Below are positions 11,630-31,769 of a stretch of DNA of 32,000 bases, piece after piece (position 1 is the first letter of the stretch; every line of letters starts with the position of its first letter). Both the position numbers and the translations under genes were made by a program. The notes under the pieces were generated by a model. It saw nothing but the letters and a program-made list of their open reading frames with translations. It was not told the origin of the DNA and did no database searches. Source of the DNA: Xanthomonas campestris pv. campestris str. ATCC 33913 (lineage in GTDB: Bacteria > Pseudomonadota > Gammaproteobacteria > Xanthomonadales > Xanthomonadaceae); contig NC_003902.1 in NCBI RefSeq assembly GCF_000007145.1, positions 4,106,497 through 4,138,496 of the forward strand. Direction: 5' to 3'.

Positions 11630-11690
11630 ACTCTACAGCGCGTCGACCGGGGGCGATGGCAGCGCGCGAACCGGCTGCCGTGCAAACGAA
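11630..11690 (-). promoter_or_regulatory. PIP box (HrpX-type plant-inducible promoter) plus -10-like hexamer for pglA
   Basis: The minus strand reads TTCGT (11690-11686), then exactly 15 nt, then TTCGC (11670-11666). After 30 nt comes TAGAGT (11635-11630, fitting YANNNT). This matches the consensus TTCGB-N15-TTCGB-N30-32-YANNNT. It lies 118 nt upstream of the pglA ATG. Confidence 0.7.
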
Positions 11691-12475
11691 GCAGCATGCC
11701 ACCGCGCTTCCTTGTTGCTACCAAGTGCGCAGATCCACGTGGTCAGCAAGTTAGTGCGTGGCGTTACTTGGCAAGGAAACGATCCACTGCGGCTAGTTGC
11801 GGCGCATGCCCGGCTGAGCGGAACTTCCGCAAGGCATGCCGCCGACATTACCCTGCCTCGCAGAGGGCCATCCAACACAGGCGGCGCGTCGCTTCAAAGT
11901 AAGGTCAACCACCGCCATCACTGGCAGGCGCTTCTGACATCGCCTGCTGCTGAGAGCGCGCAGCAAGCGTCATCACCGGGCCCGTAGGCTCCTTGTCGAT
12001 CTCCTCGCGCTCGCGCTGGAACTGCACCATCTCCTGCGCCCGTTGCTGATCCATTGCCTCCGTTTTTTGCAAGGTTTCAGTCATGCCGGGCGATGGCGTA
12101 TTGAGCGCGGTTTCCGAATGGAATCCCAGCGTTTTGCCAAAGACAAAGGCCACATCATCTTGGATGGTTACTTTCCGGAGTTCATCCGCGCGCTCAATCC
12201 CCGATTCTTTGACGGCTTGAAGCACTTCGGCCGTTTTCTCATCAGATGTGCCCCTGGGGAGCTGTGCCTGGATGGCGGAGAACAATGCGTAATCCCGATG
12301 ATCAGAGGGAAACGCCTGCTGAGCGACATCTTGGGATGGCCTGATTTGCTCGACCCGATCCTCATCGTTCACGCCTGCGTTTGAACGCCCGCCAGTCCCA
12401 CCAAAGCCAGGCGATGACGTATAGGAGGACGACGCGCGCTCAGGCAAGACGATCTGTGCCGGCACTTCGCTCTGA

Positions 12476-12511
12476 GTTGGCGTTGGCGTTGGCGTTGGCG
12501 TTGGCGTTGGC
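12476..12511. repeat. Hexanucleotide SSR (GTTGGC)x6 encoding a (PT)6 linker
   Basis: Six perfect tandem copies were counted on the plus strand. They translate on the minus strand as PPTPTPTPTPTPTQ inside the effector pseudogene. A shorter relative (tggcgttggcgttggcg, ~13765-13785) encodes APTPTPQ. Confidence 0.9.
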
Positions 12512-13434
12512 GGCAATGTTGCCTGCATCGCTTCTTGCTGCTCTGCCTGCAATGGAACAGCCGATGGCGCATCGTTCTGTGGCGTGCCTACTCGGGCTTG
12601 CTGCTCGCTGCCCTGCTCCACCGGCCCATTTGCCGATGCCGGCGCTATGGGTTTCAAAGCTTCTCGGCGCGCATGTTGTGCCTGGGACAACGCTTCATCC
12701 AGCTCTTGTCCGGCAACGCCCGTTGCCGGCAAACCTTGGTCTTGCTGGAACTGTCTCACGGCATGTTCGGTCTCCGAACCGTAGTGCCCGTCTTGCGGCA
12801 CGGCCTGCCCGTTTGGACCACGCGCATCTACTTGCTGCAAGCGATATTGCAAGAACTCGACTTCTTGCCCCCGGTCGCCCAGGCGCAGCCCTTCCACTTC
12901 ATGCGATGAGCGCGGTGTTGCGGCAGCTGCCTGAGTAGGCGCTTGATTGGGGACGGTCGAAGCGGATGATGCTGATCCAAGGTTCGGCGCAGATGCGCCC
13001 GCCAAGGCTGGGCCCACTGCCTCTGCCCTCGGCTGGACTGCGCCGGCTGTCGGGGGTGCCCCAACCTCAGGTGCTTGGGTCTCTTGGGGTTCTCGTTGCG
13101 GGACAGGTTCGGGCTTCGGTTCGGCAGGCTTGGCGACCGGGCGCACGTCTTCCTGCAGAGACGCGTTGACGGATGTAGCCACCGCGACAGGAGCAGGCGT
13201 TGCCGCCTCCGCAGCAGCAGGCGCATCGGGTGTACGTGCAACGTCTCGATCTCGCTGCGCATCAATGGCCGCCTGAGGTGCTCGGGTTTCATCCACATGC
13301 GGGGCGGTAACCGTTGTCGCCGCAAAGCTTGCGGCTTGCTGCGCTTCTTGCGTAGGCACACCTTGCCGATTAGCCTCCCGCAACGCTTGCTCGTAAGCAT
13401 CGCGCTCTTGGGGCGACTGTGCGTCAATGCGTTG

Positions 13435-13450
13435 CTCCGGCGCTCCGGCG
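13435..13450. repeat. 8-bp perfect tandem duplication (ctccggcg x2; CGCCGGAG x2 on the coding strand) causing the effector frameshift
   Basis: The plus strand at 13435-13450 reads ctccggcgctccggcg. Both reading frames encode …GAPE across it. Deleting one copy fuses …SLRQEQPPSAGAPE to QRIDAQSPQERDAYEQALREANRQG… in frame. Confidence 0.9.
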
Positions 13451-15736
13451 CACCGGCCGAAGGCGGTTGCTCCTGCCGAAGTGACTGCACCTCGCTGAGT
13501 GCCTGATGGATATCGTCGGTGCTGGTCATTGCTGCAACACGCACCGCACCATCGGCGTCACGGCTCAGATGCTGGATGGGGCTGTACACCGAGTATTGCG
13601 CGGTCGTATCACGCTGCAACGCCAAAGAGCTGGTCGCGGCATCGATCCCGTTTGCCTCACGTGTCCGTTGCACCGCAAGCTGGATCGCGCCTGCGGTCTG
13701 GGCATTGGGCGCAACGCCATAGGCGGCATAGGCCGCTTCGGTATTGGCCTGATCTTGTTGCTGTGGCGTTGGCGTTGGCGCTTGCCTTGCCGGCATCTGT
13801 GCCAACGCCTGCCCGTGCTGCTCCAATGCCGGTTGCAAGCGTTCGCGCGTTGCATTGAGTTCTGACGGGACATTGCCTTCGGCAGCAACACCATCATGCC
13901 GCCACTGATCTTGCGTATCGCGCTGATACTGCTTGCCGTCCGAGGCTTGCAGTGAGTCTGGGTTCAAGGCTGCCTGCACGGCTGATGGCACGGGGCCAAA
14001 ATCGTCCCATCCATTGCGCTGATAGGCAGTCTGATAAGTCGCTGCAATTGCAGCTGGGCCACGGGCAATGTTGGCGTCCACCACCTGGGCTGCTTGTTGA
14101 TCCAACCCGGCACTGCGCTCGGGGCTTGCCGGATCAACCGTCCAGACGGGCCGCTCGTTCCTATCGACTTCGTCGGCGATCATCCGGGACCACTGGCCAC
14201 TTGCCGGATCATGCCGCCAATCCCGTGCGTAAAGATGCGCAGCATCTGCCTCACTGGATGGCTGCACATAGGGGTTACTGGGTTGCACCTTGCCAAGCGC
14301 CTGCTCGGTCGCTTCGCTACTGGCGTGATAGTTCAGCTCGCGCGCTTTTTCGGGCAGTGCGAACATGGCCTGCTTCTGCGGTGCATCGACGCTATCGTTG
14401 GGAAGATCGGCCTTTTCTTGGCGCAACCACTGGTTGCCATTGAACTCCCAGCTCACGCCCTGCTTGTCAGTTTGTGTATAGATCTGGCGGTTGTCCCAGA
14501 GCGTCACGGCCTTGTCGGCAGCAGCACTGAACAGATAACCATCGGCCACCACCAGCGCGACGGGCCCGGCGCCGGTTGTGCCAACCACGGCAGCGGCGGC
14601 GGTGCCTCCCGCCCAGCCGCCTATGCCTCGGGCACTAAAGTGCAGCGCTTCTGACCGCGCAGCGGTAAGGTTGTCTTGCGCCAACAGCGTGCCAACACGC
14701 TCTCCGGTTTGCGACGCATCGTAGGCAGTGGCGGCAACGCCCAAACCCGCAAGCCCTGCTGTCATCCCGGCGCGACGCAAGCCTGGGATCTCCGGCTCAG
14801 GCACAGGCACGCGTGCAGGCGGAGCCCCTGGCCGCACGAGTTCATCAATGGTGGCAATGCCTTCCAGCCGGCTGTTCACGCCGTCACTGACGTGTAGCTC
14901 GGCGTGCTCAGCAAGCACTTGCTCCTGAACGGCGGGGGCGGCGTTGGGGATGTCTTGCACATGCGCCGGTAGATCGCGGTGCCAATCGACCTGTTGTTGC
15001 CAGCTTTCGCGCAGTACTTGGGTGACCGCTGGATCCTTGAACCACGCATTGCGCGCCGCTTCCAGTGCCTGCCCGGGCGGACGTGCATCGGTGCGGCTAT
15101 CGTAAACCTCGGCACCCTGGCGGTTGAAGATGCGTACGGGCGCCGTGGTCTGGGCATGCACCGTGTCCAGGCTGATCGGCAGCCTGGTGTAGACGACCTC
15201 GCGATGACTTTCGGGCACGTAGCGGCCGTAGCCTTCCCGATCGAGCTGCTGAGAAAACCTGGAATCGACGCCATGCTCGCTTTCCAGCTTGTGCGCGGCC
15301 ATTGCACGCACCTCGACGTCATAGCCGCGCGATTGCAGATCCTTGATCAGTTCCGCGCTCCACTGGCCATTGCTGAGCGTGGTGTCGAAGATCAGGTTCT
15401 TCTTGCCTTCGATAGTGACTTGCAGCAGTTCATCGGCCCATTGGCTGGCATCGGAGTGGGTGTAGCCAGACCAGGTGTAGGGGTGGGCATTGCGCAGGGC
15501 GGACACTTCGGGGTGAGCGTTACGCAATTCATCCGGATCGATCAGGACGACATCCCTGCCTAGCTCGACGTCTGCAGCTCTTGCGAGACTTCCTTTTCCC
15601 GAGCCAGGTTGCCCAGCGAGGATGATCGCCTTGGGGTGTTCGAAGGACGTTTTTGTCTCCAGTGCGGCATCATCAAGAATCTTCTGCTCAAATAATCTGC
15701 GATGCTCGACATTATCGAGACGGGATTCCTTTTCGT

Positions 15737-16381
15737 TCATATCAAAGACTCCTTGTGCGTCTCGATGTAATTCCACAGCTGATCTAGATCCGACATTCCG
15801 CGATTTCTCGATCTTGCATGGCGGGTCAAACGTTCTTTTTCTTCAGCCATTTTTACGGCGTTAGCATCACCGCTAGCGTGCGCAAGATCGAGTTCCTCGC
15901 GGGCTTCGGAGATGAAAGACTCAAGCCTTCCTTCCAACGCCCAGATGGCTCCATCGAACGGAATCAACGGATTTGGCTTCCTGATGTAATCATCGAGAAC
16001 ATCCTGCAAGCGCTGAATCAACTCGGGATAGTCTCTCAGTAGCTCACGCAATTTCTGCGGCACAGGAGGCGCAGGCAAGCCGTTTTCAATGGAGGGAGGC
16101 ATGGGCTTCGACATGGCAGGATCTTTCCTCTTAGGCATGGGCACGCGCGGCGCAGTGTGCGCATTGTCATCCAGTGCAGGGACCGGCTGCACCGGCTGCA
16201 CCCACGGTGCCGGCTTGGGTTTGCGCTTGACATGCTCCAGCAAGCCGCCATGCGGCAGCGGGCCTAGCTCGCGCTGCGTGCGTTCATTGATCAGTTGCAA
16301 ATCGCGCAGCAGCTGTGCGGCACGCGTCTCGGCTAAGCGCTGCGCCAATGCGATGTAATGGGAGCCTGATGTATCGCTCAT
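15737..16381 (-). CDS. Hypothetical 214-aa cytoplasmic protein, candidate cognate immunity/antitoxin for the zeta-like toxin
   Basis: Has an ATG (complement of 16379-16381) with a GAAGGAAG SD. Its stop TGA overlaps the toxin ATG (ATGA at 15737-15740). No signal peptide or lipobox. A Pro-rich middle is followed by a helical-looking C-terminal half (PVPQKLRELLRDYPELIQRLQDVLDDY…ISEAREELD) shared with the 140-aa ORF upstream. No family recognised. Confidence 0.6.
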   Translation of the reverse strand: MSDTSGSHYIALAQRLAETRAAQLLRDLQLINERTQRELGPLPHGGLLEHVKRKPKPAPWVQPVQPVPALDDNAHTAPRVPMPKRKDPAMSKPMPPSIENGLPAPPVPQKLRELLRDYPELIQRLQDVLDDYIRKPNPLIPFDGAIWALEGRLESFISEAREELDLAHASGDANAVKMAEEKERLTRHARSRNRGMSDLDQLWNYIETHKESLI

Positions 16382-16503
16382 ATGGGCTTCCTTCTGCAGA
16401 TGCCGCTGGAGAATAACCGGCTTCAGTAAAATGGTGTCGCATGGCTAACATTGCGATATCCATTTTTTAATATTCTATTGTAAATGCGATCCATCAATGC
16501 CGA

Positions 16504-16926
16504 TCATTTTCCTCGTGAGACGAGGTATTTAACGACAGGAGAAAGATCGGAAAAATAGCCGCGGTATACTGGAAATGCTGAAAAATCCCTGAACTTTTTT
16601 TCAGCTAATTCGCAAGAAAAATCGATTTTTATCTGGTCAACTGCTGATTTAGAAAGCCTAACGTCTTTAGCTACAGCATCAAGTTCTTGCGATGCTTCAA
16701 TGTGAAATTTATTTAATTCAGCACAAACCATATCCATCAACCTTCTGTAAGCCGGGCCGTATTTCTCCCTCGAGAATTCGCCACCTGGCAATTTTTCCGC
16801 GAATTGATCAAAAGCATCTTGCAACCTCGATAAATATGTAGGATAACTTCTTAATATTTTGTATAACTCCAGTGGGATTGGGTAGCGTAAATCACGATCC
16901 AGAGGTTCGTTTTCATCGACTAGCAT
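16504..16926 (-). CDS. Hypothetical 140-aa protein, paralog of the C-terminal half of the 214-aa ORF (second immunity-like gene)
   Basis: Has an ATG (complement of 16924-16926) preceded by GGAAGGAG. It lies in the most AT-rich stretch of the window. The shared motif is PIPLELYKILRSYPTYLSRLQDAFDQF … IEASQELD, against PVPQKLRELLRDYPELIQRLQDVLDDY … SEAREELD in the 214-aa ORF. No signal peptide. Confidence 0.6.
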   Translation of the reverse strand: MLVDENEPLDRDLRYPIPLELYKILRSYPTYLSRLQDAFDQFAEKLPGGEFSREKYGPAYRRLMDMVCAELNKFHIEASQELDAVAKDVRLSKSAVDQIKIDFSCELAEKKFRDFSAFPVYRGYFSDLSPVVKYLVSRGK

Positions 16927-17013
16927 CTCAACACTCCTTCCACGTTTGCGTACCAGGCGCAGGAACTAACCGTCTCTCCATATCCCATAGCACTTTTTTA
17001 TAAAAATTAATTG

Positions 17014-18024
17014 TTACCATGCCGCCGTAGACATTAAGGCCTTAACTTCTGCTTTAGGTAACAGCCGCTTCGTGAAGTAAGCATCTTCGTAATACTTGAT
17101 CTTCTCGCAGAGCACCGGGCTTGGGATGCCTTCATAGAGGAAGACTTCCTTATCAAAACCCATCGCCTTCAACTCCTGCGGCAGCATCAAGGCGCGGCGC
17201 TGCTCGGTTTCTGAATAAGACACGCTGCTTTGCTTGCCACTGGTTTGCGACTTGTTCTTCTTGCGCACCGTGGTGTAGCCGAGCATGTCCGAGTAGTCGT
17301 TGGCGTCTTGCTGCTCGCGCGGGGCATAGACGATTTGCAAGGCGTGGTTGGTGATGATGGTGCGCGAGACATCCTTGCCATAGGTCGCGTCCAGCTGCGC
17401 CATGCTCTGGATGATCGGTAGCAAGCGAATGTTGTAGCCGGCCATGTAGCTCACCGCGCTTGCAATGATGTCGACCCGGCCGATGGACGTGAACTCGTCC
17501 ATCAGCAACAAACACTGGTGTTCGAGCACCGGGTTGTTCTGCGGCAGCTCTTTGGTGTTGAGGTTGATGAGCTGACTAAACAGCAAGTTGATCAACAGGC
17601 GGCTTTCGGCAAGCTTGTTCGGCTGGATGCCGATGTAGATGCTCATCTTCTTCTTGCGCACATCAGTCAGCAGGAAGTCGTTGTCGCTGGTTGACGCATC
17701 CAGGATCGGATTGATGAACTGGTTGAGCGGTTCCTTGAACGTGCCCATGATCGAGGCGAAGGTCTCTTCGGCTTGCGAGAGCAAATTGTCAAAGGCTGTC
17801 TTTGCGTCACGACCCAGGAAGTCGCGCTGCGAGAGCTTTTTGAGGTAGCCCTTCAAGTCGCTGCCATCTCCCGACGACACGCGATAGAGCATTCCAAGGG
17901 TTGGAAACATCCAGGTGTCTTTGGGGTGCTCGCGCTTGATCTGATCATCGAGGCTATCGAACAGATAGAGCGTAAACGCCATGAAGGCGTTGCGGGCCTG
18001 GCTCACCCAGAACTTTTGGGCGTC
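17014..18024 (-). pseudogene. virD4: virD4/traG-type T4SS coupling protein, C-terminal fragment (IS-disrupted)
   Basis: Part of track ORF 17014..18225. From codon GAC at 18024 it reads DAQKFWVSQARNAFMAFTLYLF … LLLMDEFTSIGRVD (Walker B-like) … NIRLLPIIQSMAQL … MLPQELKAMG, typical of the TraG/VirD4 C-terminal two thirds. Residues encoded by 18025-18225 are read-through from the IS. Confidence 0.85.
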
Positions 18025-18056
18025 CGACGTCCCCCCGCCCTGAGTAGCGGCCTGGT

Positions 18057-18908
18057 TTAGAGTCCGGGGTTGATGATATCGGTGTTTGCCAGATGTTGGG
18101 CATAAGCAGCCGGGGTCATGCCGCCGATTGCTTTCTTGGGTCGGTCCTCGTTGTATTCGCGTCGCCAGCGTTCGATTTCGGTGCGCGCGTGCAGTAACGT
18201 CGGGAACCAGTGCTCGTTGAGGCATTCGTCGCGCAGTCGGCCGTTGAAGGATTCGACGTAGGCGTTCTGGTTCGGTTTGCCTGGCTGGATGAGCCGTAGT
18301 TGCACATTACGGGCATGCGCCCAGGCGACCATCGCCTTACCGCAAAACTCCTTGCCGTTGTCAGTGCGGATCACCTTCGGCAAACCGCGACTGTGCGCCA
18401 GTCGGTCCAGCACGCGCGTCACCCCGTGCCCGGAGATCGCGCGCTCCACTTCGATGGCGACCACTTCGTGGGTTGCATCGTCCACGATCACCAGACACTT
18501 GATCACCCGGCCTTCGGCGGTGCGGTCGAACACAAAGTCCATCGACCACACCTGGTTGGCCTGCGATGGCCGCAGCAGCGGTTGACGCTCGCCTATTGGG
18601 ACCTTCTTGCGCTTGCGGCGGCGCACTTGCAGCTGCTGCTCGCGGTACAACCGTTCCACACGCTTGTAGTTCACGATGCGCCCTTCTTGCCGCAATTTGA
18701 GATAGATCATTCCCACGCCATAGCGGCGATGGCGATGTGCCAACGCACAGATGCGTTCGCGCAGTTCGCCATTGCGATCTTCGCGCGGGCAATACCGCAG
18801 TGCACTGGCGCTCATGCCGATCACTGCCAACGCACGACGCTCGCTGGCACCACGCCCGATCCATTCGCGCACCAGCGTCCGACGCGCCGGTGCGCTTACC
18901 ACTTTTTT
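18057..18908 (-). CDS. IS3-family transposase OrfB (DDE integrase core), expressed as OrfAB by -1 frameshift
   Basis: The slippery heptamer A AAA AAG is the complement of 18902-18908, and the OrfB frame is -1 relative to OrfA there. The product reads KKVVSAPARRTL… WSMDFVFD … IRTDNGKEF … YVESFNGRLRDECLN (D, D, E region). The first ~58 codons of track ORF 18057..19082 merely overlap orfA. Confidence 0.88.
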   Translation of the reverse strand, partial: KKVVSAPARRTLVREWIGRGASERRALAVIGMSASALRYCPREDRNGELRERICALAHRHRRYGVGMIYLKLRQEGRIVNYKRVERLYREQQLQVRRRKRKKVPIGERQPLLRPSQANQVWSMDFVFDRTAEGRVIKCLVIVDDATHEVVAIEVERAISGHGVTRVLDRLAHSRGLPKVIRTDNGKEFCGKAMVAWAHARNVQLRLIQPGKPNQNAYVESFNGRLRDECLNEHWFPTLLHARTEIERWRREYNEDRPKKAIGGMTPAAYAQHLANTDIINPGL

Positions 18909-19165
18909 CGCAGTGCATCCTTGATCAGGTCGTTCTCGAACAGCTGCTCGGCCAGCAACTTCTTCAGCCGCGCGTTCTCGGACTCTAGGTCCTTGAGCCG
19001 CTTGGCATCGGGCACGCTCATCCCACCGAACTTGCTGCGCCACAGGTAGTACGAGGCCTCGCTGAAGCCATGCCGCCGGCACAGGTCCTTGATGGCGACG
19101 CCGCTTTCGGCTTCGCGCAGAAAGCCGATGACCTGCTCGTCAGTAAAACGTTTCTTCACGTCCAA
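18896..19165 (-). CDS. IS3-family transposase OrfA (HTH)
   Basis: 89 aa: MDVKKRFTDEQVIGFLREAESGVAIKDLCRRHGFSEASYYLWRSKFGGMSVPDAKRLKDLESENARLKKLLAEQ, the classic IS3/IS407-group OrfA with a leucine zipper. It ends …CGA AAA AAG TGG TAA. Confidence 0.9.
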   Translation of the reverse strand: MDVKKRFTDEQVIGFLREAESGVAIKDLCRRHGFSEASYYLWRSKFGGMSVPDAKRLKDLESENARLKKLLAEQLFENDLIKDALRKKW

Positions 19166-19227
19166 TCTCCTCGGGGTAGGGAATTGGACTCCAAACTGAG
19201 GCGCTACTCAAAATTGGGGGGACGTCG

Positions 19228-19921
19228 CGTCAGAGCCATCCGGGTAGAGCATCGCCGCAACACTCATCAGATCCGACACGCGAAACGCCGGGTCCGGTGA
19301 GATATAGCTGAGCGGGTTCCAACGGTGGGTGCGCCCGTCTTCCGCGAACGGGTTAAACAAAAAGACTTCCTGGCCTTGGCTCTTGCGCCAACCCGAGGTC
19401 AGGTCGAAATTCTCCTGCTTGATGTCCAGAACGACCACCGATCCTTGGTAGTCGAGCAAATTGGGAATGACGATGCCCACGCCCTTGCCCGAACGCGTGG
19501 GCGCGGCCAGGATCACAAACTGCTGACCAGGCAAGCGCACCACCTTGCCGCCGTGCTTGCCAACCACAATGCCGGTTGGCGACGGTTTGAGCATGTCCTT
19601 CTTGGCCAGATCACTGCCGGAGGCAAAGCGCGCGTCGCCATGCAATGCGGCCGCCTTTGGCTTGAACAGCGGGATCAGCAGCGCGATCCAGGCCAGCAGC
19701 GGCACGCCGAAGCCTATGGCACCAGCCAGCTTGATCTTGCTGGCATAGGGAGCGAACTGCGGGAGGTCGAGCGCTTTGACGTAAGACCAGTAAGTGTCGA
19801 CGCTGAGCGGCGCAGCCACCTTCAACAGCATCAAGATCAACTGACCGGAGAAGAAAATTCCCGCGATTGCTGCGAGCAGCAACAGGCCGAATGCAGCGAC
19901 TATCCTGAGATTACTGCTCAC
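19228..19921 (-). pseudogene. virD4: virD4/traG-type T4SS coupling protein, N-terminal fragment (IS-disrupted)
   Basis: GTG start at 19921 with AAAGGAA upstream. It has two N-terminal TM segments (IVAAFGLLLLAAIAGIFF; AIGFGVPLLAWIALLIPLF), the Walker A ILAAPTRSGKGVGIVIPNLL, and then VVVLDIKQENF. The sequence ends …MLYPDGSDA at the IS junction. The track ORF runs 7 more codons into the IS, to 19208. Deleting the IS plus one TSD copy restores a 566-aa ORF. Confidence 0.88.
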
Positions 19922-20057
19922 CGTGCGATTCCTTTCATCGGTCCTTGACTCGTCTACCAGCGTAAGCCGTCTTCCAGATTACAGGGTCAGCACCCGCTGA
20001 CTGTCAGGAAGCTCTACCAGCCATGCAAGATTTTCTGCCAGGTCTGCCTTGCAAGGC

Positions 20058-20199
20058 ATGAGGATTAAGAGCGGCTAACAAAACGTAGCGAGCAGTCGTC
20101 AGGTGGGTGCGGACGGCGCGGAGGAACCGGAGTGTACGTGGGTACATGAGGATTCCGAGCACCGGCCGCGCCCGCCTGACGGCTGCGCAGTAGTTTTGA
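20058..20199. repeat. ~142-bp long imperfect palindrome, copy A of a two-member family
   Basis: The arms are agagcggctaacaaaacgtagcgagcagtcgtcaggtgggtgcggacggcgcggaggaaccggagtgtac and gtacatgaggattccgagcaccggccgcgcccgcctgacggctgcgcagtagttttgatagctgctct, roughly three quarters complementary by eye. It is colinear with 25402-25547. It sits between the virD4 start and the rodA stop. Confidence 0.75.
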
Positions 20200-20317
20200 T
20201 AGCTGCTCTAAGGTGCCAGTTACTGCACTGATCAGCCTCTCTTGACGAGTCCACAGCGCTCATTTGCAAAGGCCGGCATTGCGAAAATTGGCTATTCGGG
20301 CACAGCGGCCGACAGCC

Positions 20318-21436
20318 TCAGTACCCGTGCACCGGTCGATGCGATTTCACCGCCATCACCAGGCCCAGCCCTGCCAGCAGCGAGACCGCCGAGGTGCCGC
20401 CGTAGCTCATCAGCGGCATCGGCACACCGACCACCGGCAGCAGGCCGGAGATCATGCCGCCGTTGACCAGCACGTAGACGAAGAACGCCAGGCCAGTGGC
20501 GCCGGCGATCAGGCGCGAATAGGTGTCGCGTGCCTGCGAGGCGATCCACAGGCAGCGGCCGATCACCACCAGGTAGAGCGTCAGCACCGTGGCCACGCCG
20601 ATCCAGCCGAATTCCTCGCTGAGCACCGAAAACGCAAAGTCGGTGGTCTGTTCGGGGATGAAGTTCAGGTGCGACTGCGAGCCCAGCCCCCAGCCCTTGC
20701 CGTTCAATCCGCCAGAGCCAATGGCGATCTTGGACTGGATGATGTTCCAGCCGGCGCCGAGCGCATCGTTTTCCGGGTTGAGGAACATCATGATGCGGTC
20801 CTTCTGGTATGGCCGCAGCAGCCAGAACCAGGCCACCGGCGCCGCGGCCGAGACGCCGCCGACGCCCACCGCCACCCACCACCACGGCAGGCCGGCCAGC
20901 AGCAGCACGAACACGCCGCTGGCGGCGATCAGCACGCCGGTGCCGAAGTCCGGCTGCAACATGATCAAGGCGGTAGGCACGCCGATGATCACGCAGGTGA
21001 CCAGCACGGTGGAAATGCGCGGCGGCAATGGCATGCGGTGCAGATACCAGGCCGCCATCATCGGCAGGCTGATCTTGAGCAGCTCGGCCGGCTGCAGGTA
21101 GAACAGCTTGAGATCCAGCCACTGGCGGCCGTATTTGCCGGTGCCCAGCGCGAACACCGCCAGCAGCGGCAGCATCGACAAGCCGTACACCCACGGCGTC
21201 CACGCGCGCAGGCGCAGCACCGACATGCGCGAGATGCCCCACATTGCCGCCGCGCCGATGGCAAAGCGCACGCCTTGCGCCATCACCAGGTGATCGCCGT
21301 TGGCGGTGCCGCCGGCGCTCTTGAGCACCGACAGGCCGATCACCATCAGCGCGGCCAGCGCCAGGCACAGCACCCAGTCCAGGCTGCGGGCGAAGCGTGC
21401 GGCCAGATCCACCAGCCAGCGCAGGATGTCGCTCAC
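20318..21436 (-). CDS. rodA: Peptidoglycan glycosyltransferase RodA (SEDS family)
   Basis: 372 aa, polytopic, with FtsW/RodA/SpoVE blocks (QPAELLKI, PDFGTGVLI, IPEQTTDFAFSVLSEEFG, GLLPVVGVPMPLMSYGGTS). The GTG start overlaps the mrdA stop. Confidence 0.93.
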   Translation of the reverse strand: MSDILRWLVDLAARFARSLDWVLCLALAALMVIGLSVLKSAGGTANGDHLVMAQGVRFAIGAAAMWGISRMSVLRLRAWTPWVYGLSMLPLLAVFALGTGKYGRQWLDLKLFYLQPAELLKISLPMMAAWYLHRMPLPPRISTVLVTCVIIGVPTALIMLQPDFGTGVLIAASGVFVLLLAGLPWWWVAVGVGGVSAAAPVAWFWLLRPYQKDRIMMFLNPENDALGAGWNIIQSKIAIGSGGLNGKGWGLGSQSHLNFIPEQTTDFAFSVLSEEFGWIGVATVLTLYLVVIGRCLWIASQARDTYSRLIAGATGLAFFVYVLVNGGMISGLLPVVGVPMPLMSYGGTSAVSLLAGLGLVMAVKSHRPVHGY

Positions 21437-25337: not shown

Positions 25338-25659
25338 CGGGATTGGGGAATTGGGAGTGGGGAATCGGAGAGCGCTGTGCCGCCCTCGGTGCGGTTGAGG
25401 CTAAGCGCGGCGAACAGACCGTAGCAAGCAATCGTCAGGCGGGTGCGGACAGCGCAGAGGAGCCAAAGCGCAGGGGGGGGTCCATGAGGGTTTCGAGCAG
25501 CGGTCGCGCCTGCCTGGCAGCTGCGCAGCGGCGTTGTTCGCTGCTCTACAACTCACATTGGCGGAGCTCACCTCGGCGGGAGCGCATCGAAACGGCGCAG
25601 GGCCGCAGGCAGGGAATGGTTTGACGATTCCCCACTCCCGATTCCCGATTCCCGTCCCC
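25338..25659. repeat. Composite intergenic element: inverted heptamer arrays bracketing palindrome copy B
   Basis: The left array is gggattggggaattgggagtggggaatcggag (25338-25370). The right array is cgattccccactcccgattcccgattcccgtcccc (25625-25659). The interior 25402-25547 is colinear with 20058-20199. The element fills essentially the whole mreB-mreC spacer. Confidence 0.8.
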
Positions 25660-30920: not shown

Positions 30921-31769
30921 GAACCTGTTCACGATCTTTCCTGATCAGTGCAGACTATGCGGATGCGCCAAAAGACCTATCCGAGTGACATGAGCCGGGA
31001 GCAGTTCGAACACGTGCTGCCGATTCTGGAACAAGCGCGTAAGCGCACCAAGCCACGCCGTGTGGATATGTATGAGGTGTGGTGCGCAGTGTTGTACGTG
31101 CTGCGAACCGGTTGCCAATGGCGAGCGCTACCCAGCGACTTTCCGAAGTGGCGAACCGTGCACTCGTACTTTGCCAAGTGGAGCGAGTGCGACGATGAGG
31201 GAGTGAGCCTGCTGGAGCAGGCACTTAAAAAATCAGGTTGGCGTGGCCCGCGCCAGACAGGAGCGCAACGCTTGCACCAGGTTCTTGATCGTGGACGCGC
31301 AGAGCGTAAAGAACACGGACACAGCAGGGCAAAAGGGATATGACACGGGCAAGAAGGTGTCGGGCATCAAGCGGCATATCGCTGTTGATACTCAGGGATT
31401 GCCCCATGCAATCGCGGTGACGACGGCGGAGGTGACCGACCGCAAAGGTGCGCTGCAAGCGTTGGAGCGCTGCCAGTCAAAGTTGACGCATGTACAAACC
31501 TTACTGTGCGACAGCGGTTACACCGGAGTACGGTTTGCCGACGGCGTGCGAGAGATTTTAGGCGAACAGCTCACGGTGCAGATTGCCAAGCGCAGCGAAC
31601 TGCACACCTTCAAGGTCATGCCCAAGCGATGGATCGTCGAGCGTAGTTTTGCTTGGCTGGAGAAGAACCGAAGGCTATGGAAGAACTGCGAGCGCAAACT
31701 CAACACCAGCCTGCAGTTCATCCATTTGGCCTTCTTGGCACTATTACTCAGAAGATCGTGAACAGGTTC
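30921..31769 (+). mobile_element. IS5-family (IS427/IS1031-like small subgroup) insertion sequence, 849 bp
   Basis: It has perfect 18-bp terminal inverted repeats: gaacctgttcacgatctt (30921-30938) and aagatcgtgaacaggttc (31752-31769). Direct TTA flanks it at 30918-30920 and 31770-31772, a putative 3-bp TNA-type TSD. It encodes a DDE_Tnp_1-type transposase in two frames. Confidence 0.85.
30948..31761 (+). CDS. IS5-family transposase, split into two overlapping frames (orfA 30948..31343, orfB frame to 31761)
   Basis: OrfA reads MRQKTYPSDMSREQFEHVLPILEQARKRTKPRRVDMYEVWCAVLYVLRTGCQWRALPSDFPKWRTVHSYFAKW (the DUF4096-like N-terminus of IS5 transposases). The orfB frame reads …FLIVDAQSVKNTDTAGQKGYDTGKKVSGIKRHIAVDTQGLP…LLCDSGYTG…RWIVERSFAWLEKNRRLWKNCERK (DDE). 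The frames meet at the A6 run 31227-31232, and orfB is +1 relative to orfA. Confidence 0.8.

Follow-up and report, generated by a model that had tools for sequence, protein, structure and literature searches.

Type IV secretion systems (T4SSs) of the X-T4SS family secrete proteins and kill bacteria, and their biology is currently viewed under the assumption of one VirD4 coupling protein per system, with all effectors read via a single XVIPCD signal. Zeta-headed effectors (X-Tfes), the immunity (X-Tfi) genes upstream of them and frameshifted X-Tfe fragments (XAC1164/XAC1165) have already been described. Coupling proteins without a channel of their own are found in CloDF13 (TaxB) and in integrative mobilizable elements (IMEs) with relaxase and type IV coupling protein (T4CP), mobilizable elements that supply the coupling protein themselves and depend on a borrowed mating channel; in type VI secretion systems (T6SSs), auxiliary clusters comprise an orphan vgrG/PAAR together with adaptor, effector and immunity genes, away from the main apparatus genes. 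For the X-T4SS, VirD4 is stated to be single-copy in Xe 85-10 and Xac 306 (PMC10432156). The subject of the present analysis is an island of ~8.6 kb between rodA and pglA in a 32-kb stretch of the chromosome of Xanthomonas campestris pv. campestris ATCC 33913 (the whole stretch is referred to as the window), which holds a virD4 gene, a Zeta-type toxin gene, two small open reading frames (ORFs) and an insertion sequence (IS).

The cassette family to which this island belongs is a variant of the X-T4SS effector systems, a real module that is decayed in this strain. The island itself is probably, if with considerable reserve, an auxiliary X-T4SS cassette consisting of a virB-unlinked second VirD4, one or more immunity genes and a polymorphic effector. 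Such a cassette could work as follows. The effector would begin with an exchangeable toxin at its N-terminus; in the island this is a Zeta-type kinase, for which phosphorylation of UDP-GlcNAc and a block of cell-wall synthesis are expected. Behind this head, the predicted protein has a hydrophobic segment rich in Gly, then a peptidoglycan-binding domain and, at the C-terminus, a signal of a divergent XVIPCD type. Via this signal, we infer, the cassette VirD4 would recruit the effector and pass it to a VirB channel encoded elsewhere, in strain 8004 presumably by the uvrB-virD4-virB7...virB4 cluster at 1.95 Mb, and the 214-aa protein encoded upstream would shield the producer and its kin. In other Xanthomonas, the family rides on islands with integrase and MobA/MobL relaxase, and the copy in the window would be a stripped one that came to lie in the rodA-pglA hot spot.

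The orphan VirD4 and its putative effector

The virD4 gene of the island is split by IS1404 (Table 1), an IS3-family element with rve transposase and inverted repeats that is flanked by a 4-bp target duplication (GACG at 18021-18024 and 19228-19231) and is 99% identical to annotated IS1404 of Xanthomonas plasmids. Removal of IS1404 and one GACG in silico restores an ORF of 566 codons, identical to an intact virD4 allele at 564 of 566 positions. The restored product has the domain set, the Walker A and B motifs and the N-terminal membrane segments of VirD4/TraG coupling proteins; the 3' part of the gene matches the Pfam families T4SS-DNA_transf (E 6e-69), TraG-D_C (E 3e-28) and TrwB_AAD_bind (E 7e-21). 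Strain 8004 carries the identical 237-aa read-through product of the IS-split gene, and the split allele was found on only seven contigs.

A scan of one genome per species yielded 80 VirD4 loci, 20 of which form, together with eight X. campestris loci, an orphan clade of 28. Its members share at least 88% identity (93-97% with the window VirD4) and are distributed over at least 12 species (X. nasturtii, X. hortorum, X. cannabis, X. prunicola, X. floridensis, X. euroxanthea, X. dyei, X. euvesicatoria, X. phaseoli, X. pisi, X. arboricola and one more), several genomes holding two copies. The absence of virB genes beside virD4, first noted by eye, was borne out by tblastn with VirB1, 4 and 7-11, which gave no match better than E 0.05 over the window, and none of the 28 orphan loci has a virB gene within 10 kb. 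The order virD4-virB7-8-9-10-11-1...4 was confirmed in one of the canonical loci. In strain 8004, the IS-split orphan locus lies at 0.83 Mb and a uvrB-virD4-virB7-8-9-10-11-1-2-3-4 cluster at 1.95 Mb, 1.1 Mb away, a two-locus picture in line with He et al. 2007 (PMC2246292) and Sgro et al. 2019 (PMC6536674). Because this strain has both the orphan allele and the canonical cluster, the window virD4 is regarded as a second paralogue and not as the remnant of a deleted locus. Measured against the description of X-T4SS loci in PMC6536674, the island is chromosomal, between the core genes rodA and pglA, and the set of twelve class-A subunit genes, including VirB7 with a C-terminal N0 domain, is not found in the 32 kb. 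Nine of about a dozen orphan-copy species checked are X-T4SS-positive in Table 1 of the same paper, several of them listed via a different strain.

Orphan and virB-linked VirD4s of the same genomes are 72% identical, and 89% in the core NTPase region; N-terminally, identity is 22-30% over residues 1-40 and 60-65% over residues 41-100. A concentration of the divergence in the all-alpha domain was considered and rejected, as the differences are spread along the protein and greatest in its N-terminal membrane part. The canonical Xanthomonas VirD4 shares 72% identity with the orphan clade versus 79% with Stenotrophomonas VirD4, and the orphan protein is 70-78% identical to chromosomal VirD4 homologues of Lysobacter, Luteimonas and Pseudoxanthomonas, virB-linked copies included; a second T4CP, encoded in locus L082, matches it at only 23% identity. 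These comparisons place the orphan VirD4 firmly within the X-T4SS VirD4 family and not in the conjugative-plasmid coupling-protein clade. Its dN/dS of 0.085-0.107 indicates strong purifying selection across the orphan clade. Further VirD4 copies with no detectable adjoining virB genes were seen in L034, L049 (Pseudoxanthomonas sp. CF125) and L030 (Stenotrophomonas sp. C3), two of them followed by low-GC ORFs or by a short XVIPCD-bearing ORF. Orphan VirD4-effector pairs may, by these sequences, be widespread beyond Xanthomonas.

The toxin gene is frameshifted by an 8-bp tandem duplication, and deletion of one GCGCCGGA copy joins both frames into a single ORF of 1275 codons with no other stop. 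As it stands, the gene encodes a 970-aa product, annotated as 'zeta toxin family protein' and present on more than 400 contigs, which comprises the Zeta-toxin kinase (aa 25-217), the Gly-rich hydrophobic segment (aa ~326-405, at the hydropathy peak) and a conserved middle region. The PG_binding_1 domain follows in the 3' frame (about 12700-12873; Pfam E 5e-14). The P-loop of the kinase reads GQPGSGKGS (window ~15590-15620, toxin aa 41-51), with Gly after Lys instead of Thr/Ser, and this GKG variant is kept in all intact alleles of other species. A (CGCCAA)n repeat that encodes (Pro-Thr)n in the linker (window ~12483-12512) varies in copy number among X. campestris strains, always in frame. As in X-Tfes, a variable N-terminal antibacterial domain (Zeta_toxin) is combined with an immunity-type gene directly upstream (ATGA overlap) and, at the level of profiles and predicted fold, with a C-terminal domain related to XVIPCD.

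This last domain had been noticed initially as a 'VirD4-recognition domain', an assignment that stands at the profile-profile and predicted-fold level and fails at the level of Pfam. The Pfam XVIPCD family (PF20410), which marks X-Tfes, does not match the toxin C-terminus even at E<=10; Lysobacter X-Tfes, used as positive control, score 100-120 bits. Because a word-indexed homologue search returned nine close relatives only, an exhaustive HMMER search was needed; it retrieved 198 representative clusters with the domain, always at most 12 residues from the C-terminus. The proteins bearing it have enzymes typical of X-Tfes, their domains including PG-binding, lipase, GH19, M23, Tle1-like and lysozyme ones, and the named members are from Stenotrophomonas and Lysobacter; nine of 95 homologues of the domain are also matched by PF20410. 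When 42 of these domains were aligned to 34 canonical XVIPCDs with hhalign, the two profiles matched with Prob 96-97% (E 2.5e-10), the main difference being a ~10-residue insertion between the first two helices, which is missing here. The AlphaFold2 model of the domain (pLDDT 89) has the order helix-helix-strand-strand-strand (a1-a2-b1-b2-b3), followed by a long helix; helix-helix-strand-strand-strand is also the order in the nuclear magnetic resonance structure of the XAC2609 XVIPCD (PMC8740702), and support for the fold rests on this described topology because Foldseek against the PDB gave no match. Since profile-profile match and predicted fold agree despite the failure of PF20410, the toxin C-terminus is, on these predictions, a divergent XVIPCD subfamily, termed 'type B' in the following: a relative by homology that lies outside the Pfam family.

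Relatives, immunity candidates and site of the island

In every orphan locus with readable downstream sequence, virD4 is followed by one or more immunity-type genes and then by a toxin of ~1200-1280 aa. This three-part cassette recurs intact in many relatives, as judged from their sequences, and often on a mobile element. The C-terminal two-thirds of the toxins are conserved (80-92% identity) and the N-terminal domain is variable, and heads co-vary with the immunity genes upstream: Zeta heads come with the family of the 214-aa ORF (one, two or three modules per ORF), and an AHH-like head (a weak AHH-nuclease match) is paired with Imm11 (E 1e-57 to 1e-66). A further head belongs to no assigned family, and the nearest outgroup, a Luteimonas metagenome-assembled genome, has a Tle1-like lipase. 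By sequence, this co-variation is the logic of polymorphic toxins, inverted in that the trafficking signal is C-terminal.

At 12 of the 20 non-campestris orphan loci, a MobA/MobL relaxase gene, two small ORFs and a helix-turn-helix (HTH) regulator gene lie directly upstream of virD4, with integrase homology farther upstream in eight of the 12 (e.g. Phage_integrase and MobA_MobL, E 1.4e-31, in L016); integrase and MobA homologues are also found at the nearest outgroup locus (Luteimonas). These islands have low GC at third codon positions throughout, and in nine of the 12 the toxin gene is followed by an HlyD protein and a C39-peptidase ATP-binding cassette exporter, a pair of the bacteriocin-export type (L016:16099-19640; same position in L013, L018, L019, L020, L022, L023 and L024). 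The form with integrase and MobA is found, for example, in X. euroxanthea and X. euvesicatoria ATCC 11633. Stripped cassettes, without relaxase or integrase, lie next to rodA in X. campestris, X. hortorum, X. phaseoli and one further species, and others adjoin tRNA-Ser or tRNA-Gly or lie between core genes, which amounts to at least five chromosomal sites overall.

Hidden Markov models (HMMs) were built for the canonical (type A) and type B XVIPCDs and run over all fetched loci, where the two signals separate cleanly. All loci of the orphan clade have a type B effector directly downstream of VirD4, and so do one Luteimonas, one Stenotrophomonas, one Pseudoxanthomonas and two Luteibacter loci; type A effectors form arrays upstream of the large main VirD4 clade. 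One VirD4 of either kind, with matching effectors, is present in each of Luteibacter sp. OK325 and E-22, and in a neighbour-joining tree (small sample, no bootstrap support) the type B-linked VirD4s fall outside the type A-linked clade. An association of signal type with VirD4 type is suggested by this adjacency in a small sample.

The two small ORFs of the window had been called paralogous, which is correct, by sequence, for one common module of ~100 aa and does not extend beyond it (31% identity overall; BLAST E 8e-7 over 30 residues). Neither belongs to a Pfam family, and no homology to Epsilon_antitox or PezA was detected, so that the pair that defines Zeta/epsilon systems is not found here. 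A structure model of the module, from a two-row alignment, is helical and of low confidence (pLDDT 63), with no meaningful PDB match. In the position of the 140-aa ORF, X. hortorum has one that is 67% identical to it; several hundred contigs of X. campestris are listed with variants in the 90% cluster of this window ORF (351, 141, 100 and smaller counts). The exact sequence of the 214-aa ORF is listed in 1194 collection blocks, and its homologues were found upstream of Zeta-type toxin alleles only; by position and co-variation, it is probably the cognate immunity protein of the toxin. In X. nasturtii and X. hortorum, the ~100-aa helical unit is fused two- or threefold within one ORF (L014:11695-12684, L018:10285-11274 and L026:11623-12990), as if an immunity array had been merged into a single protein.

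The interval is an accessory island, as the initial annotation had proposed from its composition and gene content. The minus-strand housekeeping flanks were found as described, with small coordinate corrections: dacC, rlpA, mltB and pglA on one side, rodA, mrdA and mreDCB on the other, and the island genes of interest are on the minus strand as well. Bounds at 11734 and 20317 were set by homology breaks versus empty-site genomes (20317; ~11733); the right edge is the rodA stop codon, where the match to these genomes stops at 20315-20317, and the left edge meets the pglA promoter, with no scar of additional genes. Empty rodA-pglA sites, with the two genes ~320 bp apart, exist in X. arboricola and one citri-group strain, intact alleles exist in relatives and in X. 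campestris strains such as those of loci L003 and L004 (assemblies GCA_943912745.1 and GCA_000589935.1), and the plant-inducible promoter (PIP) box of pglA is kept in the empty-site genomes. X. vasicola (L107:4490-10000 and L108) has a different insert in this spacer, a GH6 cellulase gene with IS debris, by which the spacer appears to be an insertion hot spot; in Pseudoxanthomonas, rodA directly abuts mltB. The deviant composition was confirmed by GC (0.585 versus 0.655 and 0.679 in the flanks, whose 1-kb windows average 0.667 +/- 0.025; minimum 0.46 at 16.2-17.2 kb) and by tetranucleotides (correlation 0.83 between island and flanks, 0.98 between the flanks). CP075146.1 is 99.975% identical to the window across 12 kb.

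Searches for traces of mobility in the window copy were negative. The window contains no tRNA gene and neither integrase nor relaxase, so that this copy lacks the marks of an IME; att-type repeats turned up neither at the edges of the island nor next to the cassette copies linked to tRNA genes; and a plasmid search with the whole island returned the IS as sole match. No promoter or terminator signal in the island exceeded shuffled expectation. The 396-bp spacer between rodA and virD4 contains an sX9-like small RNA element, ~150 nt upstream of virD4. A second, weak sX9 match (RF02228, 45.2 bits) lies at 25409-25485 (minus strand) between mreB and mreC; both matches are present again in the X. 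campestris locus L004, and neither empty sites nor the rodA-linked loci of other species have them. At the window end, a low-GC stretch (0.585) at 30948-31761 (plus strand) holds an IS5/IS4-type IS with two overlapping transposase ORFs.

Table 1. Features of the island and its flanks, in window positions
Feature	Position	Strand	Basis or remark
pglA, polygalacturonase (GH28), left flank	10148-11548/11617	minus	Pfam Glyco_hydro_28, E 3e-42
Imperfect PIP box of pglA, TTCGT-N15-TTCGC, just beyond the island	11666-11690	minus	Direct reading of the sequence
Toxin gene, 3' frame: Pro/Ala-rich linker, PG_binding_1, (Pro-Thr)n repeat, XVIPCD-like C-terminal domain	11905-13435	minus	
Predicted divergent XVIPCD-like C-terminal domain, ~120 aa	11908-12327	minus	hhalign and AlphaFold2; PF20410 negative
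Toxin gene, 5' reading frame, 970-aa product as it stands	12828-15740	minus	Pfam Zeta_toxin, E 3.4e-60
8-bp tandem duplication, GCGCCGGA x2, frameshifts the toxin gene	13436-13451	minus	Alignment to intact alleles
214-aa ORF, leader and one helical module, intact	15737-16381	minus	Stop overlaps toxin start (ATGA)
140-aa ORF, single immunity-type helical module, GC 39.7%, intact	16504-16926	minus	Module common with the 214-aa ORF
virD4, 3' part: all-alpha domain, Walker B (MDEF), TraG-D_C region	17014-18024	minus	Pfam
IS1404 (IS3 family), 1203 bp	18025-19227	minus	rve/HTH_21; 12-bp perfect terminal inverted repeats
virD4, 5' part (codons 1-231): two N-terminal hydrophobic segments, Walker A (PTRSGKG)	19228-19921	minus	T4SS-DNA_transf, E 1.7e-35
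sX9-like small RNA element	20073-20147	minus	Rfam RF02228, 96.8 bits
rodA, followed by mrdA and mreDCB	20318-21436	minus	Pfam FTSW_RODA_SPOVE, E 4e-98

Competing explanations

The island had been read initially either as a portable coupling-protein, cargo and immunity cassette that uses a T4SS encoded elsewhere or as the remnant of a deleted T4SS locus, and the first of these fits best, in view of the five or more sites, the mobile islands and the canonical cluster of strain 8004. Several observations weigh against it. The window copy is non-functional, and the P-loop of the kinase is GKG and not GK[ST]. Besides failing PF20410, the C-terminal domain of the toxin finds no XVIPCD entry in phmmer and profile searches of the PDB, and Foldseek with its confident model finds nothing below E 0.2 there. 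The presumed immunity function is argued from position and co-variation alone, the structure model being poor. The orphan VirD4 diverges most in its N-terminal membrane region, which is thought to contact VirB10, and because of this divergence docking on the same VirB channel has to be assumed. The frequent MobA/MobL neighbour, finally, hints at a role of the orphan VirD4 in DNA transfer. This protein could primarily be the DNA-transfer coupling protein of an IME, acting with MobA/MobL, in which case the toxin-immunity pair would be cargo or an addiction module, the toxin would not be recruited by VirD4 and the window copy would be a stranded fragment. Such a scenario is considered unlikely, although the relaxase and regulator genes upstream of 12 of the 20 non-campestris loci, the integrase homology in eight of them and the similar Luteimonas outgroup locus speak for it. 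Zeta/epsilon pairs are, moreover, classical plasmid-addiction modules. A chromosomal VirD4 of the X-T4SS type promotes plasmid transfer in X. euvesicatoria (PMC10432156). The possibility that the island VirD4 might belong to a conjugative-plasmid clade with relaxase partners is borne out in part: MobA/MobL genes do lie beside most non-campestris copies, but membership in the X-T4SS family holds and the plasmid clade does not apply. Against a mere cargo role stand the ~1275-aa toxin with its PG-binding and XVIPCD-like domains, the latter found only at the C-termini of antibacterial enzymes, the exchange of heads along with the immunity genes that match them (Imm11 for the AHH-like head), the hallmark of interbacterial polymorphic toxins, and the persistence, at five or more sites, of stripped cassettes whose VirD4 is under strong purifying selection; besides, DNA transfer and toxin recruitment are not mutually exclusive. 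Both may even be combined. Because type B effectors lie downstream of VirD4s that fall outside the type A-linked clade, and because of the matched pairs in Luteibacter, it is tentatively conceivable that orphan VirD4 and type B XVIPCD form a cognate receptor-signal pair orthogonal to canonical VirD4/XVIPCD, a self-contained plug-in with which a mobile element hijacks the resident X-T4SS channel to move itself and to fire its own toxin, and thus a living intermediate between conjugation and killing.

It is highly improbable that a T4SS locus once stood here, lost its virB genes and left the island as a last remnant, retained for its immunity genes. Truncated X-T4SS loci do exist, X. euvesicatoria 85-10 keeping only virD4, virB7-9 and virB6 copies (PMC6536674, PMC10432156), and in the window the immunity ORFs are intact while virD4 and toxin gene are broken. 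A canonical virD4-virB cluster is, however, present elsewhere in the same genome (8004), the orphan VirD4 forms a separate clade at 72% identity that has no virB gene within 10 kb at any of its 28 loci, the three-part unit also lies beside tRNA-Ser, tRNA-Gly and other core genes and on mobile islands, and the clean edges at rodA and pglA leave no trace of further genes. The initial annotation had rightly recognized independent lesions in both key genes, IS1404 in virD4 and the 8-bp duplication in the toxin gene, and had attributed them to decay or to on/off switching, the first part of which stands. If the lesions were reversible switches, the weapon would be toggled by strand slippage that adds or removes an 8-bp unit, and by precise excision of the IS; the duplication is an exact tandem whose reduction to one copy restores the frame, and loss of IS1404 would restore virD4 exactly. 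Even so, switching is very doubtful. The 8-bp repeat has just two copies, every frameshifted strain examined carries the same duplication, and these strains are one lineage (99.7% identical), separate from the 3-5% divergent lineage of intact alleles. The 970-aa products are found on more than 400 contigs versus two for a 1275-aa member of that cluster, and other strains have virD4 interrupted by an IS at different sites, an IS in the 3' end of the toxin gene, or truncations to 774 and 696 aa. This pattern of sequences is consistent with a weapon that was lost repeatedly and an immunity that was kept. Because virD4 is split, the toxin lacks its PG-binding and signal domains and both immunity ORFs are intact, the auxiliary cassette of the window probably acts at most as an immunity island.

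Comparison with known systems

In the literature, which was covered incompletely, no description of a virB-unlinked VirD4 paralogue clade was found, no account of such a VirD4 that is constantly linked with a variant-signal polymorphic effector or that is carried on a relaxase/integrase island, and no published T4SS counterpart of T6SS auxiliary clusters. The architecture had been taken to be undescribed, and indeed no paper describing the cassette was found, but functional analogues are known in CloDF13 and the T6SS auxiliary clusters. If the cassette explanation is true, a second, mobile VirD4 would mean that the substrate choice of an X-T4SS can be expanded by added receptors, which offers a testable handle on signal reading, and toxin cassettes could spread between species along with their own means of loading. 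The relaxase-linked form would also be relevant to the proposal (PMC7777525) that killing T4SSs arose from conjugation systems. In X. campestris pv. campestris, a widely conserved 'zeta toxin family protein' pseudogene locus is explained by the finding, which points to immunity that is kept after the weapon has been lost.

The closest described systems are the X-Tfe/X-Tfi pairs of X. citri, Stenotrophomonas and Lysobacter (Souza 2015; Sgro 2019, PMC6536674; Oka 2022, PMC8740702), with which the island shares a variable N-terminal antibacterial domain, a PG-binding domain, a C-terminal signal of ~120 aa with a Gln-rich tail and an overlapping upstream immunity gene. In contrast to these pairs, the island signal is a separate subfamily that fails PF20410 and lacks the ~10-residue insertion between helices 1 and 2, the cassette effector is physically coupled to its own virD4 paralogue, and the whole unit is mobile with a polymorphic head. 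The canonical X-T4SS VirD4 (XAC2623; in Xcc, the XCC/XC virD4 upstream of virB7) has the same domains and Walker motifs as the orphan protein, whereas the latter is never encoded beside virB, forms a distinct clade, is divergent in the N-terminal membrane region and occurs in multiple copies per genome. Zeta/epsilon systems (PezT/PezA) have in common with the island a Zeta_toxin kinase domain (island E 3e-60) and a small helical protein encoded directly upstream; here, however, the toxin is the head of a 1275-aa protein of secreted type, the P-loop reads GKG, and Epsilon_antitox/PezA homology is lacking.

CloDF13-type elements and the cassette both have a coupling protein without a channel, and in relatives the cassette is flanked by MobA/MobL relaxase and tyrosine integrase genes. 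They differ in that the T4CP of the cassette belongs to the protein-secreting, bacteria-killing X-T4SS family and is tied to a toxin/immunity pair, and in that the window copy has no relaxase or integrase. T6SS auxiliary clusters and the cassette may be regarded as analogous in that both appear to encode a loading or specificity component together with cargo and immunity and to retain orphan immunity genes; the machine is a different one, however, VirD4 being an ATPase receptor and not a component of a spike.

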